From assembly GCA_018818145.1 (NCBI GenBank), contig JAHIST010000036.1:6103-30102 (forward strand): a DNA stretch of 24,000 bases, read 5' to 3'. Below, in pieces: positions 2,430 through 10,403 of the stretch. The first letter of the stretch is position 1; every line of letters begins with the position of its first letter. The position numbers and the translations under genes were made by a program. The stretch is from Patescibacteria group bacterium. GTDB taxonomy: Bacteria > Patescibacteriota > Minisyncoccia > Portnoybacterales > GWB1-42-6. A model generated the notes under the pieces. That model was given only the letters and a program-made list of their open reading frames with translations. It did not search any database and was not told the origin of the DNA.

Positions 2430-2885
2430 TCACCTCCTTTTTATGGAAAAAAACAATTTTATTTCGGCTTCGGCTTCGGCCTTGGTTTTTGACGCATGCA
2501 TTCTGTTTCTAACGTTTTTGCCTTGGCGAAACAAAGCTCTTTCCTCGTCGGTAATAAAATCTCGTCTGATTGTTCCCCGGCGCGCCCATAAAAGGTTAGT
2601 CGAACCTCTTAATCTGAAAGCTTTACGGACGGCATTCTCGCCTTCAAAAATAAAGACGATACTGATGCCTTCGCCCATCGCCCTTTCGACAGCCAAATAA
2701 ATCTTAGGCAATTTCGCTTTGGTCTTAGCATAGAGATTACTGCATTCATCAGGTAAAATAACTCTGCTCTGCGCCCGGACGATCCTCAATCCCAGTTCCT
2801 CTATTCTTGCCAAAACCCTGCCCACCAGCCCCCTGACCACGCAATCTGGCTTCATAATCACCAGTGTCCTTTCGTCCTTTTTCAT
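2430..2885 (-). CDS. ndk: nucleoside diphosphate kinase-like protein
   Basis: 151-aa ORF. ERTLVIMKPDCVVRGLVGRVLARIE, GTIRRDF and NRMHAS (active-site His context) match the NDK family. AGGAGG lies 7 nt upstream of the ATG. The stop is 4 nt before the DHH gene start, consistent with an operon. Confidence 0.85.
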   Translation of the reverse strand: MKKDERTLVIMKPDCVVRGLVGRVLARIEELGLRIVRAQSRVILPDECSNLYAKTKAKLPKIYLAVERAMGEGISIVFIFEGENAVRKAFRLRGSTNLLWARRGTIRRDFITDEERALFRQGKNVRNRMHASKTKAEAEAEIKLFFSIKRR

Positions 2886-2948
2886 CGCCCTGCCTCCTAT
2901 TTGATTTTTAAAGCGGAAGCTTTAACTTCCGCGAACTAAACTTGATTA

Positions 2949-2973
2949 AATAAAAATAGCACATCCGTGCTAT
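2949..2973 (-). terminator. Rho-independent terminator candidate downstream of the 3063..3905 gene
   Basis: Minus strand reads ATAGCAC-GGAT-GTGCTAT (7-bp stem) followed by TTTTTATTT. A second hairpin, GCGGAAG/CTTCCGC at 2913-2932, follows. Confidence 0.5.
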
Positions 2974-3062
2974 CTTATCAACGTTTACCCGTGGTTTTTT
3001 GTAATCTTACCAAGGCACTCGAGTAGGGTTAAAATTCACAGACTTCTTCAATTTGTAATCGA

Positions 3063-3905
3063 TTATAATGCTACTTTCCGGTGAATATTCTGAAGTGCCT
3101 CACGGGCTTTTTCTGCTTTCTGCTTCTTTTCTTTTTGCTCTATCTTCTCGTCTAAGATTTGCTCAATTCCTATCTTAACGGCTTGAAAATATTTAAGACA
3201 CTCCTCTTCCTCAAGATCATGAATGCCCTTACTTAATATTGAATAAAGATTTTTATTTTCAACCAAAAATTCCGGTAAAAAGACTTTTAATAAAATAATT
3301 TTTTCGTCCATTCTACCTTTTAAATAATTCTCTTCTGAAAAAGCTGGATCTTTTTTAACCTCTGTGTGCGCCTCTTCTATTAGATTTTCAAAAATTCTTC
3401 GTAGATAGACGAACGAACCGATACCAACACCATGAGCGTTCAAGCCAATTCCTCTGGTAAATTCTTTATATTGATCCTCTCCTAATTCTTTTCTATATTT
3501 TTCCGCTTGAGGAATTTGAAAGTCAGCTACTGATGGGAATTGACCCATTTTTACAAAAAAACCATCTCCCTTATAGTAATAACTATAATATTCGTGACCA
3601 CTGTTTCTAGTGCATCGATAAACGGTTCTATCGAAACCTATAGATTTTTTCCACTCAGAAAAAATAGTACGATTGAGATACTCTACCGTATCAAAAACGC
3701 TCTCCTTCCCACACTTTATACAATATATATCAATTGTTCCAGAATAACACAAAAGGTCATATATTTTTCTGCATTGGCTGCCAACACTTAAGTCCAGCTC
3801 ATGATAAAGTGGCATTTCTAATATGAACTCTCTGGGAGAGTTTAAATATGGATCATTTTGTATCTCCTGCTCTTCAGGCATTTTTTTAGAAATAGGTTCT
3901 CGCAT
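3063..3905 (-). CDS. hypothetical protein with N-terminal Cys/His zinc-ribbon-like segment and C-terminal helical domain
   Basis: 280-aa ORF with an ATG start in a visibly AT-rich segment. It carries CIKCGKE...YRCTRNSGHEY. The C-terminal part (LSKGIHDLEEEEC context) loosely resembles DUF4145-type helical domains, recalled from memory only. Confidence 0.6.
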   Translation of the reverse strand: MREPISKKMPEEQEIQNDPYLNSPREFILEMPLYHELDLSVGSQCRKIYDLLCYSGTIDIYCIKCGKESVFDTVEYLNRTIFSEWKKSIGFDRTVYRCTRNSGHEYYSYYYKGDGFFVKMGQFPSVADFQIPQAEKYRKELGEDQYKEFTRGIGLNAHGVGIGSFVYLRRIFENLIEEAHTEVKKDPAFSEENYLKGRMDEKIILLKVFLPEFLVENKNLYSILSKGIHDLEEEECLKYFQAVKIGIEQILDEKIEQKEKKQKAEKAREALQNIHRKVAL

Positions 3906-3949
3906 CGTTTGAACCTATCCGCTGATGGCAAATTTTAGAAATTTCGACC

Positions 3950-4318
3950 TTATTTTAAAGGTATGCTCTTTTTTGTAAATGCATCTACTATCAAATGAAA
4001 AACATAACCAACAAAAAATGAACCGGCATATAAAATATACTCCGACCTAAATAAATATGCCCATATAACCGCCAACAAGCTAGTTGCGATGACCAATATC
4101 AATAATAATCTTACACTATGGAAAAATTTGCGGTGGGCAAAGCTATGAAGAGAAACTGGCTCTATGAGGTCTGGAAATATACCACCAAGGATAATAAAAA
4201 TACTGGATAAAAGAAATTGCCATTGTCCCGATAAGGGCAGTTTCCAAACGCTAAAAATAATATAAACCCCCACGACAACAATTAATGATATGTTTGTATG
4301 GGTTTTCCTACTGGGCAT
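3950..4318 (-). CDS. membrane-bound metal-dependent hydrolase-like protein (DUF457/YdjM-like)
   Basis: 122-aa ORF with about 3-4 hydrophobic helices. His/Asp motifs FPDLIEP, HRKFFHS and HLIVDAFTK are typical of the YdjM/DUF457 family. Confidence 0.6.
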   Translation of the reverse strand: MPSRKTHTNISLIVVVGVYIIFSVWKLPLSGQWQFLLSSIFIILGGIFPDLIEPVSLHSFAHRKFFHSVRLLLILVIATSLLAVIWAYLFRSEYILYAGSFFVGYVFHLIVDAFTKKSIPLK

Positions 4319-4342
4319 TTCTTTTTAAAAGTTATTCCTAGA

Positions 4343-4567
4343 TTATTTTTCAAAGCCATGCATTATTAAACAATTATTGTACATAAAATCAAACTCTGCC
4401 CTTCTTTCGGCTTCAGTGCCGGAAGATATATTAAAACGATTTGCAGTTACAGAATTATAGCAGTTTTGCCTTATATGCATTGGTACATATATATACAAAT
4501 AAAAAAATACTATAATAGCTAAAATAATTAGAAGTTTAAACCAATTTTCTTTTAAAAAGTTTTTCAT
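4343..4567 (-). CDS. small single-pass membrane protein, hypothetical
   Basis: The ATG at 4567-4565 is preceded by GGAGGA about 9 nt upstream; the track's start at 4585 is a TTG. It has one hydrophobic helix (KLLIILAIIVFFYLYIYVP). It begins 5 nt after the stop of the AbrB-like gene. Confidence 0.5.
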   Translation of the reverse strand: MKNFLKENWFKLLIILAIIVFFYLYIYVPMHIRQNCYNSVTANRFNISSGTEAERRAEFDFMYNNCLIMHGFEK

Positions 4568-4572
4568 TTTCT

Positions 4573-4755
4573 CTATTTCCTCCAATCCCTAATCACAATC
4601 CCGCCGCGGGTGCGTTTGGCCACGACTTTCTGGTGCTCTTGCCAGCCCAGCGCCAAAACCATTTCTTTTGGCAAAGTCAGCCCTAAGCTGCCGCCGGCGC
4701 GGCCCATCCGAGTTAGCTTTCTGATGTTTTTATTCTTCAGTGAAGTTCTTGGCAT
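4573..4755 (-). CDS. AbrB/MazE/SpoVT-family DNA-binding protein (antitoxin-like regulator)
   Basis: 60-aa ORF. RKLTRMGRAGGSLGLTLPKEMVLALGW matches the swapped-hairpin SpoVT/AbrB fold signature. It sits directly downstream of a triple 10-bp repeat. Confidence 0.7.
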   Translation of the reverse strand: MPRTSLKNKNIRKLTRMGRAGGSLGLTLPKEMVLALGWQEHQKVVAKRTRGGIVIRDWRK

Positions 4756-4760
4756 AAAAA

Positions 4761-4798
4761 GTGTTACTTAACTTGTTACGTAACATGTTACTTAACAC
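4761..4798. promoter_or_regulatory. triple operator-like repeat GTTACNTAAC x3 with 12-bp phasing
   Basis: GT-GTTACTTAAC-TT-GTTACGTAAC-AT-GTTACTTAAC-AC. The central unit is a perfect palindrome. The array ends 5 nt from the ATG of the AbrB-like gene. Confidence 0.5.
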
Positions 4799-4806
4799 TC
4801 AATAAG

Positions 4807-4880
4807 TGGCAGGGGCGGAGGGAGTCGGACCCCCGTTATTCGTTTTGGAGACGAATGTAATACCGTTATACCACGCCCCC
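4807..4880 (-). tRNA. trnW: tRNA-Trp(CCA), CCA end encoded
   Basis: Hand-folded cloverleaf: acceptor GGGGGCG/CGCCCCU, anticodon arm UUCGU-CUCCAAA-ACGAA, T arm GGGGG-UCCGACU-CCCUC, 3' GCCA. Confidence 0.93.
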
Positions 4881-4898
4881 GTGCCGCCTCTTTGAGGC

Positions 4899-5040
4899 GG
4901 AATTTCTAAATCCTAATTTCTAAACCAGTCCCGCCCGCTTCGCCATAGCTTCCCGCCAGAGGCGAGGCTCGCAAAAGGCGGCAGCGAGGCGAGCGCAGCG
5001 GGACATTATTGAAAATTGGAAATTTGAAATTGGAAATTCC
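4899..5040. repeat. MITE-like element: GC-rich palindromic core flanked by imperfect AT-rich terminal inverted repeats
   Basis: The left end GGAATTTCTAAATCCTAATTTCTAAA and the reverse complement of the right end GGAATTTCCAATTTCAAATTTCCAAT match at 19 of 26 positions. The core has GTCCCGC...GCGGGAC arms and the module CCGCC-AGA-GGCGAGGCTCGC-AAAA-GGCGGCAGC, which is also found inside the tRNA-Thr locus. Confidence 0.5.
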
Positions 5041-5049
5041 ACAAAGAAA

Positions 5050-5208
5050 CTACTTCTTAGTCTCTTTGTGGGTTGTGTGCTTTTTACACCACTTACAGAA
5101 TTTTTTAATCTCAATTTTACGCTCTACTTTGCGCTTGTTTTTGCGCGACCAGTAATTGATGCGCTTACAAATCGCGCACTTAAGTTTTATTAGATTGTCT
5201 TGAGACAT
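5050..5208 (-). CDS. rpmG: 50S ribosomal protein L33 (zinc-ribbon type)
   Basis: My translation gives a 52-aa ORF below the track's length cutoff: MSQDNLIKLKCAICKRINYWSRKNKRKVERKIEIKKFCKWCKKHTTHKETKK. It has the CxxC...CxxC pattern and the L33 signature. tRNA-Trp lies downstream. Confidence 0.9.
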   Translation of the reverse strand: MSQDNLIKLKCAICKRINYWSRKNKRKVERKIEIKKFCKWCKKHTTHKETKK

Positions 5209-5220
5209 ATTATTTTTATT

Positions 5221-5301
5221 CGTCATTGCGAGAAGCGAAGCGACGAAGCAATCTCGTGGTATTCCACGGGATCCTTCGGCGCTTTGCGCCTCAGGATGAC
5301 G
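5221..5301. repeat. GC-rich palindromic intergenic repeat (CGTCATTGCGAG ... CCTCAGGATGACG type)
   Basis: The ends CGTCAT/ATGACG are inverted, with internal GAAGCGAAGCGACGAAGC and GGATCC. Its architecture relates to the GTCATT...AATGAC elements at 19893 and 20823. The track ORFs across it are artefacts. Confidence 0.6.
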
Positions 5302-5308
5302 CTTTGCG

Positions 5309-5836
5309 TCAGTTTTTCTTTTCCCAGCTCTTTAAGCTATCATCAAATTCGTATAAATCCAAATTTTTGCCAAACTGCGTGTCCTGGCCGTTTTTCAAAG
5401 TCCATTGCGATTCTCCGGGCTCAAAATAAGCGATGACTTCGTAACTAAGTCCGGTCTCTTTTTCCTGCGCTTCCAGCAAAACCCGCCGCATGATATGGCC
5501 GTCTTCATACTCAACATAAAAGTTGCTATCGGAGCCGATGACGAACCAAAACCGGTCAACAAACCAATGGCCGCCCAGAACGGGCTGGGCCGGCGAAATT
5601 TCGCCTATCATTTGCGCCACGTCTTCCATTATTATATCTCGCTCCGTTTTTACTCTAGGCGTTCCGCTGGTTTCCGACGGCGTCGGTGAAACCGTGATTG
5701 TGGGCGAAGCCACCTCAACCGTACCTTGCCAAGGCCAGCGCTGATAGATTTGCTGATACAAAACCATCGCGCCTGCCAAAACGGCAAGCAAAACCAGTAA
5801 AATTATGAATTGTTTTTTGGTAAACCCCCACGCCAT
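5309..5836 (-). CDS. hypothetical membrane-anchored protein
   Basis: 175-aa ORF with an ATG start. It has an N-terminal hydrophobic helix (IILLVLLAVLAGAMVLY), then a Pro/Thr/Ser linker and a globular domain. I recognise no family. Confidence 0.6.
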   Translation of the reverse strand: MAWGFTKKQFIILLVLLAVLAGAMVLYQQIYQRWPWQGTVEVASPTITVSPTPSETSGTPRVKTERDIIMEDVAQMIGEISPAQPVLGGHWFVDRFWFVIGSDSNFYVEYEDGHIMRRVLLEAQEKETGLSYEVIAYFEPGESQWTLKNGQDTQFGKNLDLYEFDDSLKSWEKKN

Positions 5837-5935
5837 AATAATGTTTTATTTTAACAAATTATTATTAAACTTCTTACTTTCTAAGCATTTACCCGCTGCC
5901 ACCGTTTTTTGGTGTGGGGGTAAACATAATTTTTG

Positions 5936-6188
5936 AGCCGTTGGCCAGAATCGAACTGGCGACCTACTCCTTCATTTGCACCTCTTTTTTTGTTCGCCTA
6001 TAAGAGGATTAGACTGTATCTTCTCCGAAAATATTCGGAGCCCTTGTCAGTCGTTCGAGCGCCTTTTAGGCGCTACGGTCTTGACCAAGCCAGGCCTTTA
6101 ACCGTAATTCGGGATTCATAATGAGATTGCTCTCATGATGGGCAGAATCTCTACCATGGAGTTGCTCTACCGGCTGAGCTACAACGGC
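5936..6188 (-). tRNA. trnT: tRNA-Thr(GGU) interrupted by a 180-nt intron in the anticodon loop
   Basis: The 5' exon is GCCGUUG-UA-GCUC-AGCCGGUA-GAGC-A-ACUCC-AUGGU (6188-6153). The 3' exon is AA-GGAGU-AGGUC-GCCAG-UUCGAUU-CUGGC-CAACGGC-U (5972-5936). All stems pair perfectly. The spliced loop AUGGUAA gives anticodon GGU. Confidence 0.85.
5973..6152 (-). ncRNA. group-I-like intron within tRNA-Thr(GGU)
   Basis: The 5' exon ends in U and the intron ends in G. Hand-fold elements:
- IGS-like GCCCAU pairing with exon AUGGU
- P2-like AUGAGA-GCAA-UCUCAU with a GNRA loop
- P4/P5-like UACGGU-UAAA-GGCC...GGUC-AA-ACCGUA
- P6-like GCGCC-UAAAA-GGCGC
- P7-like GACUG/CAGUC flanking a P8-like CUCCGAA/UUCGGAG hairpin and an A-rich J8/7
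- P9-like CCUCUU/AAGAGG
P3 was not resolved by hand. Confidence 0.65.
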
Positions 6189-6775
6189 AATAAACTTATT
6201 AAAATATTTCTTACCTTGATATTTCCATAATATAAAGTTAACACTCCATATTTGCTTTTATTCCTATATTTACCTAATTTTCCTGTAATGGAAACAAACG
6301 GTTTGTAAAATTGCCCCTTCTTGATTCCTAATCGTTTCATCCAATATTCCCGGGCTTCTTCTATATCAATATCCGTAAAAGTATGCAAATGAAATTTCAG
6401 ATCATCTTTGCTAATACTAAAGAACTTGACTAAAAACTCAATAAATTTTTTTAATAATGCGGGGTCTGAATTCCCAATCCTTACTGTAGTTTTGTTTGCT
6501 TTGGTACCCTCTCCCCAATACAGGCCTATCCCCAATCCGAATAATTCTGCTTCTTTTAGATTTTTTGGTAAAACAAAGCGAAATGGATCGCCTTCGGGAT
6601 TATGCTTGATATAGATTGCTTCACTTATTGATCTCTTTGAAATTCTGTATTTAAATAACCAGTAATTTATTCTGCCTGCCGAACAGCGAAATTTTTTGGC
6701 GATCTCGGTAACTGATTTTTGCTCTTTGCTATATAGTCTTAATAGCTCCTCTTTTTTTATAGCTTGTATTTTCAT
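6179..6775 (-). CDS. LAGLIDADG-type homing endonuclease-like protein with N-terminal HTH
   Basis: 198-aa ORF with an ATG start in an AT-rich segment. LFGLGIGLYWGEGTK followed by RIGNSDPALLKKFIEFL fits the single-motif LAGLIDADG pattern. SVTEIAKKFRCSAGRINYWL is HTH-like. The last three codons and the stop overlap tRNA positions 1-10. Confidence 0.7.
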   Translation of the reverse strand: MKIQAIKKEELLRLYSKEQKSVTEIAKKFRCSAGRINYWLFKYRISKRSISEAIYIKHNPEGDPFRFVLPKNLKEAELFGLGIGLYWGEGTKANKTTVRIGNSDPALLKKFIEFLVKFFSISKDDLKFHLHTFTDIDIEEAREYWMKRLGIKKGQFYKPFVSITGKLGKYRNKSKYGVLTLYYGNIKVRNILISLLPL

Positions 6776-9952: not shown

Positions 9953-10029
9953 TTACAGACCGCCGCATCGACCGCTCTGCTTGCCTCGCCGAAGTCCCGC
10001 AGACGGGACGAAGGCGGGCCACCTCCTGG
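9953..10029 (-). pseudogene. partial 5'-half copy of tRNA-Tyr carrying a ~40-nt GC-rich hairpin insertion in the D-stem
   Basis: A 28-nt perfect direct repeat (9953-9980 = 9871-9898) covers the D-arm through anticodon-loop nt 37. The upstream acceptor-like CCAGGAGG-UG-GC is followed by the insertion CCGCCUUC-GUCCCGUCUGCGGGAC-UUCGGCGAGGC. The copy stops after CUGUAA and has no T arm or 3' acceptor. Confidence 0.6.
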
Positions 10030-10173: not shown

Positions 10174-10403
10174 AGCCGAGGGCGAGATTCGAACTCGCGG
10201 CCAGCGGTTTACAAAACCGCTGCTCTACTTCACCCCGCCATCTTTTATCTAGAGCCACCTCTCGGGCTCGAACCGAGAACCTGATGCTTACAAAGCAACT
10301 GCTCTGCCAATTGAGCTAAGGTGGCAAAAGATGGCGGGGCAAGCTGCCGCCCCGACACGACGTCGGGGCGAGCCTCGCCCTTTTGGGCGGGAGCTACCTC
10401 GGC
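10174..10403 (-). pseudogene. interrupted (split or intron-containing) tRNA-Thr(UGU): a 13-nt 5' piece and a 59-nt 3' piece separated by a 158-nt D-loop insertion
   Basis: The 5' piece is GCCGAGG-UA-GCUC (10403-10391). The 3' piece is UGAAGUA-GAGC-A-GCGGU-UUUGUAA-ACCGC-UGGCC-GCGAG-UUCGAAU-CUCGC-CCUCGGC-U (10232-10174). The acceptor, D, anticodon and T stems would all pair perfectly once the insertion is ignored. Confidence 0.5.
10253..10325 (-). tRNA. trnT: tRNA-Thr(UGU), intact, embedded in the insertion of the interrupted tRNA-Thr(UGU)
   Basis: Fold: GCCACCU-UA-GCUC-AAUUGGCA-GAGC-A-GUUGC-UUUGUAA-GCAUC-AGGUU-CUCGG-UUCGAGC-CCGAG-AGGUGGC-U. There is one U-U mismatch in the anticodon stem. Confidence 0.93.

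Follow-up and report, generated by a model that had tools for sequence, protein, structure and literature searches.

The Azoarcus intron is said to have been regarded, in the work of Reinhold-Hurek and Shub from 1992, as the smallest self-splicing group I intron. Bacterial group I introns have four classical tRNA hosts, as listed in the original prediction for the locus described here; this is correct as history, and the number of bacterial tRNA settings has since been raised from 4 to 21 (Williams 2020, bioRxiv 10.1101/2020.01.27.920355). The seed alignment of that study includes an intron of tRNA-Thr, Rba53.Thr.5Ug, where the 5' exon ends in ggU and the insertion site follows nucleotide 36. 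tRNAs with group I introns in CPR bacteria are mentioned in passing by Lui et al. 2021 (PMC8172020). No description of the particular compact tRNA-Thr(GGU) intron family considered below was found in a literature search, and a search for a 'smallest group I intron' returned nothing. The intron analysed here has the same host tRNA as Rba53, the same insertion site (position 5, that is, after nucleotide 36) and the same U-1/ωG. However, the Rba53 seed, through which the two types were compared, is longer and IC3-like; its core differs, and its P8/P9 region is long.

The window, that is, the whole analysed stretch of 24,000 nucleotides, contains on its minus strand (6188..5936) a tRNA-Thr(GGU) gene interrupted by a 180-nt insert after U36. 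ARAGORN with introns allowed reports tRNA-Thr(ggt) i(37,180), with the intron between positions 36 and 37; the site and the length are identical to those predicted originally, when the strand was not given. The 5' exon (6153..6188; GCCGUUGUAGCUCAGCCGGUAGAGCAACUCCAUGGU when read 5'→3' from 6188 to 6153) comprises the 5' strand of the acceptor stem, the D arm, the 5' strand of the anticodon stem and the anticodon loop up to U36, and its last three nucleotides are the anticodon GGU (6155..6153). The insert occupies positions 5973..6152. The 3' exon (5936..5972; AAGGAGUAGGUCGCCAGUUCGAUUCUGGCCAACGGCU from 5972 to 5936) starts with A37 and A38 and continues with the 3' strand of the anticodon stem, the variable loop, the T arm, the 3' strand of the acceptor stem and the discriminator U (5936). 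Joined together, the exons form a 73-nt tRNA-Thr(GGU) with the predicted loop AUGGUAA, which is the loop of uninterrupted tRNA-Thr(GGU) genes. The acceptor stem GCCGUUG/CAACGGC, the D stem GCUC/GAGC, the anticodon stem ACUCC/GGAGU and the T stem GCCAG/CUGGC are all fully paired, in agreement with the two perfect tRNA halves noted earlier; the last nucleotides of the 5' exon and of the insert, U6153 and G5973, agree with the earlier reading as well. CCA is absent from the 3' end of the gene. The split tRNA-Thr(GGU) gene with its 180-nt structured insert is thereby confirmed as real. Within the window, ARAGORN run with default settings leaves the gene out, and the Rfam tRNA model at its gathering threshold matches only four ordinary tRNAs, as is to be expected when a gene is split. 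The ORF listing has no open reading frame on the insert's own strand, and therefore no homing endonuclease is encoded there.

Two further tRNA-like sequences were observed in the window, both on the minus strand. A 66-nt sequence at 10174-10239 lies 12 nt downstream of a normal tRNA-Thr(UGU) gene (10252-10325). It scores 35 bits with the Rfam tRNA model (gathering score 29) and is not called by ARAGORN; its anticodon loop is UUUGUAA (UGU), the D arm retains only about 9 nt, and there is one mismatch in the acceptor stem. This may be a pseudogene or else an unusual second tRNA-Thr(UGU). Positions 9953-9980 are an exact 28-nt copy of the segment 9871-9898, running from the D arm of tRNA-Tyr to position 37 of its anticodon loop (GCAGAGCGGUCGAUGCGGCGGUCUGUAA). 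The copy lies 54 nt upstream of the intact tRNA-Tyr gene, has no acceptor strand, and could be a scar of recombination or integration.

The insert folds into a stable structure. Its minimum free energy is -56.8 kcal/mol, compared to -41.4 ± 4.1 kcal/mol for shuffled sequences (z = -3.8), and none of 200 shuffles reaches the energy of the native sequence. The order of elements is canonical for group I introns: P1, P2, P3, J3/4, P4, J4/5, P5, P4', P6, J6/7, P7, J7/3, P3', P8, J8/7, P7', P9.0, P9, ωG. The P2 hairpin with a GNRA loop (here GCAA), P4/P5, P6, P7 enclosing P8, and P9, all proposed originally from the sequence, are present in the minimum-energy fold, and each of these helices is upheld by the alignment analysis described below. 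All coordinates that follow refer to the minus strand.

In P1 (6141..6155) the exon GGU (6155..6153) and the intron AGA pair with UCU and the guide GCC (6143..6141), the loop being GAU; the U36·G pair at the 5' splice site is a wobble pair. P2 (6117..6140) has 10 pairs and one C·U mismatch, with the GCAA tetraloop at 6130..6127. The 5' strand of P3, CCC (6111..6113), pairs with GGG (6043..6041) and makes a pseudoknot with P7; P3 thus has 3 bp, and P10 has at best one pair in the window. The region 6075..6110 contains J3/4 (GAAUU), P4 (ACGGUU/GACCGU), J4/5 (AAA), the P5 hairpin (GGCC/GGUC) and J5/4 (AA), and is followed by the P6 hairpin AGCGCC/GGCGCU with the loop UAAAA (6058..6074). J6/7 (CGAAC), the 5' strand of P7 (GACUG, 6052..6048), J7/3 (ACAA) and the 3' strand of P3 (GGG) form the block CGAACGACUGACAAGGG (6041..6057). 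This block recurs in the family members from the genome scan, whose search pattern did not require it; one member, L061, deviates. P8 (CUCCGA/UCGGAG, 6023..6040) is a plain helix with tandem C-G pairs. J8/7 (AAGAUA) and the 3' strand of P7 (CAGUC) at 6012..6022 match locally the consensus GAAGAUAUAGUCuaauc of the Rfam group I model RF00028, and the guanosine-binding pair is expected to be G6052-C6012. P9.0, formed by AU (6009..6008) and AU (5975..5974), encloses the P9 hairpin (CCUCUU at 6007..6002 with AAGAGG at 5986..5981; P9.0 and P9 together span 5974..6009). The last intron nucleotide, ωG (5973), is G in all aligned members of the family.

Homologous introns were collected in two scans. 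Firstly, a genome collection was scanned with a generic J8/7-P7' motif followed, at the distance expected in a tRNA, by a variable loop and a T arm. This gave at least 120 matches (loci L009-L128), which are split tRNA genes of many kinds and include at least 14 loci with introns clearly homologous to that of the window. Secondly, metagenomes were scanned with a family-specific pattern, giving at least 119 matches. Both scans together yield at least 120 resolvable loci with at least 113 distinct homologous introns. Among the matches listed, all resolvable family loci are tRNA-Thr(GGU) genes interrupted after U36 by an intron ending in G, the loop NUGGU before the intron being imposed in all resolved loci by the boundary filter. 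The titled genome records among these matches are mostly Patescibacteria MAGs (Paceibacterota, Saccharibacteria, Doudnabacteria, Vogelbacteria). The original prediction considered the host tRNA-Thr(GGU) unusual. This finds no support, with at least 113 distinct introns at the identical site and Thr.5Ug already in the seed alignment of Williams 2020.

Among the matches listed, the family introns are 169-297 nt long with a median of about 196 nt; nearly all members are within 169-227 nt, with P3 of 3-4 bp and no peripheral domains. The description of the window intron as very compact was correct in part: with 180 nt it falls 25 nt below the Azoarcus-type intron (205 nt), but it is only about the twelfth shortest of its own family among the matches listed. 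At many related loci ARAGORN with introns allowed gave other identities, namely Arg(GCG), His, Pro(GGG), Leu, Phe or Gln. These calls were rejected, as the intron was misplaced by 2-13 nt, and boundaries set by the anticodon stem make all of them Thr(GGU). Apparent intron lengths of 160 and 164 nt are ARAGORN boundary artefacts of the same kind, and the minimum, that of L142, is 169 nt among the matches listed.

The helices of the window intron were mapped onto an alignment of 36 diverse family members, and pairs were counted. Standard pairs are formed in 92.1% of cells (36 members, 51 pairs), compared to 28-45% after displacement of the 3' partners by 1-3 columns and to 75% after shuffling. 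Compensatory double changes occur in 33 of the 51 pairs, and none of 500 shuffles reaches any of these measures. The exon pairs of P1 (G-C, G-C, U·G) are invariant in all 36 members. All ten pairs of P2 and all six pairs of P8 show compensatory changes, as do three of four pairs in P5, five of six in P6 and five of six in P9. P3 is paired in 100% of members, with double changes in two of its three pairs; in L061 it is UUC/GAA, compared to CCC/GGG in the window. P4 and P7 never vary, and therefore what supports them is conservation alone; moreover, P7 was partly fixed by the search patterns that collected the family. P9.0 is the most diagnostic element. Here the dinucleotide that follows CAGUCUA pairs with the one that precedes the terminal G; the pairing is present in 36 of 36 members with 13-14 double changes (variants AU/AU, GC/GC, AC/GU, GU/AC), and this covariation defines the 3' splice site without reference to the tRNA. 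Chance does not explain the arrangement of the gene and its insert, which is found again, with strong covariation, in at least 113 distinct sequences of other assemblies.

Sequence variation in the family also bears on the tertiary structure. When the P2 loop L2 is GAAA, P8 carries a motif resembling the 11-nt receptor (GCUAA...UAUGC) in 48 of 61 sequences; of the 13 exceptions, several have variants of the motif that the search pattern did not cover. When L2 is GCAA or GUAA (GYAA), the receptor-like motif is found in none of 35 sequences, and P8 is a plain helix in all 35. The association of the loop type with the P8 motif is strong (Fisher p = 2e-15, uncorrected for relatedness) and agrees with the established receptor preferences of GNRA loops (PMC2275092). 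The window intron, with its GCAA loop and plain P8 with tandem C-G pairs, belongs to the second type, and P8 is the likely docking site of the L2 loop.

Taken as they stand, the sequence data make it very probable that this tRNA-Thr(GGU) gene is functional and is interrupted, between U36 and A37, by a spliced, ORF-less group I intron of 180 nt. By the established chemistry of group I introns, splicing would proceed as follows. In the pre-tRNA, the anticodon GGU would pair with the internal guide GCC to form P1, with U36·G marking the 5' splice site. The core would form a P4-P6 and a P3-P8 stack, fastened together by the P3/P7 pseudoknot, and the GCAA loop of P2 would dock on P8. A free guanosine bound in P7 at G6052-C6012 would attack after U36. 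Then ωG (5973), placed by P9.0, would occupy the guanosine site, and the freed 3'-OH of U36 would attack after ωG. Ligation of the exons would produce a tRNA with the anticodon loop AUGGUAA and the predicted junction CUCCAUGGUAAGGAGU (...CUCCAUGGU joined to AAGGAGU...). CCA would then be added enzymatically, since it is not encoded. From the structural comparison we infer that the intron is catalytic and sufficient for its own splicing, needing no protein cofactor.

The gene adjacent to the interrupted tRNA could be relevant in this respect. The ORF 6179-6775 on the minus strand, encoding 198 amino acids, overlaps the first 10 nt of the tRNA-Thr(GGU) gene, and its product has a weak N-terminal match to helix-turn-helix domains. 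The ORF is conserved directly upstream of intron-bearing tRNA-Thr(GGU) genes in at least eight loci (L055, L042, L176, L213, L156, L165, L134, L233), and its product is 61-70% identical to the products of ORFs found at this position in L042, L176, the Patescibacteria MAG L055 and others. The sole strong promoter-like site, TTGACT-17-TATAAT at 6823-6795 (minus strand), is upstream of this ORF; given the site and the 10-nt overlap, co-transcription with the tRNA is possible. The Trp/Tyr-type tRNA synthetase of the window shares 78-83% identity with its counterparts on metagenome contigs that carry the family. Both comparisons mark the organism of the window as a relative of Patescibacteria. Two ORFs, 6179-6775 and 5309-5836, were considered as candidate splicing factors and rejected, the former having only the weak helix-turn-helix match and the latter no similarity.

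One possibility is that the insert, although descended from genuine group I ribozymes, has been reduced so far that it cannot splice on its own and needs a host protein, such as an RNA chaperone, an aminoacyl-tRNA synthetase-like cofactor or the neighbouring 198-aa helix-turn-helix protein. Indeed, P3 is formed by CCC/GGG only, P10 is negligible, there are no peripheral domains in the 180 nt, and unaided folding or exon alignment may be weak, since P3 has 3 bp and P10 at best one pair. The position of ORF 6179-6775 directly upstream of the interrupted tRNA in the related loci, possibly under one promoter-like site, could be explained in the same way. However, the helices are rich in G and C, and the contact between L2 and P8 is maintained in the family. 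Self-splicing is efficient in the Azoarcus intron, which has 205 nt and a comparable architecture. The weak helix-turn-helix match of the ORF product is accompanied by no similarity to maturases or RNA-binding proteins, and a conserved position next to a tRNA gene is frequent and does not have to reflect a function. On balance, we consider dependence on a host protein unlikely, although it is the most serious of the alternatives to an autonomous group I intron.

A very improbable explanation is that the tRNA-Thr gene is dead and contains a structured insertion that is not spliced, the likeness to group I introns being a decayed remnant or a coincidence. Splicing is predicted here from the sequence, and the standard model RF00028 has no significant match to the insert. 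On the window this model gives 16.1 bits (E 0.13), below the gathering threshold and in a wrong register that puts P1-P6 upstream of the tRNA. No match is reported at E ≤ 10 for the isolated intron, nor for the related locus L116, and none of eight family relatives reaches the gathering score of 50 bits. Four other tRNA introns in the same search pass this score with 55-64 bits. The original prediction had named the absence of a significant match to group I covariance models as an outcome that would refute it. This criterion is too strict, since a covariance model built from the family reaches group I introns validated by Rfam; the miss is a limit of RF00028, none of whose 12 original seeds was bacterial (Williams 2020, bioRxiv 10.1101/2020.01.27.920355), and not evidence against a group I intron.

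The family covariance model, R1, whose E-values are rough, scores the window intron at 188.6 bits. Over the full length of the model, it matches RF00028-validated introns of other tRNAs at 23-36 bits, these scores being inflated because the loci were picked by the J8/7 plus T-arm pattern. Thus, L058 has 35.6 bits with R1 and 68.6 bits with RF00028; the respective scores are 31.2 and 65.2 bits for L086, 28.8 and 60.9 bits for L010, 29.0 and 56.0 bits for L023, and 27.9 and 69.9 bits for L114. The best non-family match of R1 is L019 with 36.4 bits (48.6 bits with RF00028). L086 and L010 are Bartonella tRNA-Arg(CCU) introns, relatives of the classical tRNA-intron group, which RF00028 detects whereas it does not detect the compact family. 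At the sequence level, the family HMM (nhmmer, E < 0.01) matches no other type of tRNA intron among the at least 120 genome-scan loci, with the exception of a weak match to L019. As sequence alone fails to link the family to the classical introns, the covariance model was needed. The J8/7-P7' segment of the window intron, AAGAUACAGUC, aligns to the RF00028 consensus GAAGAUAUAGUC. The 5' strand of P7 is GACUG here and GACUA in the bacterial seeds of Williams 2020, and its partner is CAGUC here and UAGUC there, which is a compensatory change from U-A to C-G.

These models, together with P1, P9.0 with ωG, the P3-P9 core, the P3/P7 pseudoknot and J8/7-P7', support the assignment of the insert to group I introns. 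The central claim made originally, that nucleotide 36 in the anticodon loop of tRNA-Thr(GGU) is followed by a group I intron, is thereby upheld by covariation, by P9.0 in all 36 members and by the link through R1. Decay of the gene would not account for at least 113 distinct versions that keep both exon halves perfectly tRNA-like, nor for the retention of U-1, ωG and every helix, the helices being kept by compensatory changes. In the 36-member alignment the stems are kept by compensatory change, which is the opposite of an accumulation of stem-breaking changes. The maintenance of exons and helices indicates purifying selection on structure, not decay. It is hardly credible that the insert is a protein-spliced tRNA intron (bulge-helix-bulge, archaeal or eukaryal type) or a group II intron: although protein-spliced introns are likewise found in the anticodon loop, the site here is 36/37 where 37/38 would be canonical, the nucleotides at the junctions take part in P1 and P9.0 with no bulge-helix-bulge, the titled genome records with the family are bacterial among the matches listed, and for group II introns there is no Rfam family match in the window and 180 nt is far below their size.

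The scans also retrieved other interrupted genes. Among the matches listed for L009-L128, ARAGORN calls split tRNA-Gln(CUG) in 21 cases, tRNA-Met/fMet/Ile2(CAU) in 17, tRNA-Thr(UGU) in 15, tRNA-Arg(UCU) in 13 and tRNA-Arg(CCU) in 12, as well as His, Tyr, Asn, Leu(CAA) and SeC(UCA), the latter in Melghirimyces (L039); these identities are raw calls, and ARAGORN misplaces many boundaries. Many of the split tRNA-Thr(UGU) loci are in Clostridia MAGs, following tRNA-Lys and tRNA-Glu, and the split tRNA-Arg(CCU) loci include those of Bartonella. In five phage-like contigs (L004-L008) tRNA genes, mostly tRNA-Arg(UCU), are split by 606-653-nt introns that have a group I core (…GUAGAGACUA…AAGAUAUAGUCC…) and contain coding-looking sequence, presumably homing-endonuclease genes. 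In L040, a genome of 0.8 Mb, the match to the bacterial LSU rRNA model (2771-6122, minus strand) spans 3352 nt for a model of 2925 positions, which suggests that this 23S gene contains insertions; such insertions have been described for CPR bacteria. Finally, one pattern match (L076, CAYIBB010000024.1) is on a contig of a MAG labelled as a Woesearchaeota archaeon. A similar archaeal-labelled case was suspected to be a mis-binned bacterial contig (Williams 2020, bioRxiv 10.1101/2020.01.27.920355).

The interruption of tRNA-Thr(GGU) has consequences for annotation. Genomes with the split gene, whose titled records are mostly Patescibacteria MAGs, will appear to have no tRNA-Thr(GGU), and as default tRNA finders and Rfam miss such genes, estimates of tRNA complement and genome completeness are distorted. 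The general annotation problem has been noted in passing (Lui et al. 2021, PMC8172020). With more than 100 naturally occurring versions of a group I core that is very small (the shortest intron has 169 nt among the matches listed), the family provides useful material for studies of folding and of minimal ribozymes, and it includes the natural swap between GAAA with its receptor and GYAA with a helix at L2-P8. That a single intron lineage occupies one site of one tRNA in several classes of this phylum, whose genomes are reduced, suggests that what would be a self-splicing element has long persisted there by vertical descent, and the family has probably been inherited mainly vertically. If the compact family introns indeed splice unaided, the natural lower size limit of the group I fold would be redefined. 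The family deserves a short description and a covariance model of its own; it does not change what is known in kind.

Comparison with known introns places the family as follows. Relative to the Tetrahymena LSU rRNA intron (IC1), considered through the RF00028 consensus, J8/7 with P7' is AAGAUAUAGUC there and AAGAUACAGUC here, and the host is an rRNA there and a tRNA here. The likeness includes the bulged nucleotide before the guanosine-binding G-C pair and the presence of J7/3; the Tetrahymena intron has about 413 nt, with P2.1, P5abc and P9.1/9.2. The closest core was found in introns of the Tyr.4Ug/Thr.2Ug type (seeds Mba143 and Pgr210, and locus L019), where J3/4-P4 is GAUAACGGUG, compared to GAAUUACGGUU here, and the likeness extends to P4' ACCGUGG and J8/7-P7' AAGAUAUAGUC. 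However, these introns occupy other sites of the anticodon loop (Mba143 being in tRNA-Tyr) and have a P3 of 6 bp, J6/7 GUAGA and an internal loop in P6, whereas J6/7 here is CGAAC.

The Azoarcus-type intron of pre-tRNA-Ile(CAU) (IC3, Aol6.Ile2.5Ug) is likewise inserted after anticodon nucleotide 36, the anticodon serving as the 5' strand of P1; both introns have no ORF or large peripheral domains, and both have a GNRA-capped P2, P9.0 and ωG. The differences are the length (205 nt there, as counted from the Williams seed, and 180 nt here), P3 of 6 bp there and 3 bp here, the P6a extension on P6 there, and the core sequence, which is AAAUUCGGCGAAA...GUAGAGACUAGAC...AAGGCAUAGUCC in the Azoarcus type. 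In general, the architecture of IC3 introns is shared, but their signature blocks (J3/4 AAA, P4 UUCGGGG, GCC-AAG-P6a, GGU-GUAGAGACUAGAC) differ here, and IC3 introns are not matched by the family HMM and are matched weakly by R1. By its core sequence, the family appears nearest to the Tyr.4Ug/Thr.2Ug-type bacterial tRNA introns rather than to those with the classical IC3 core. The window intron is a member of a compact sub-lineage invisible to Rfam and not a new kind of element. It is conceivable, though somewhat less likely than not, that the family is a distinct minimal lineage of group I ribozymes, fixed in tRNA-Thr(GGU) across much of Patescibacteria, invisible to RF00028 and including some natural introns smaller than that of Azoarcus.
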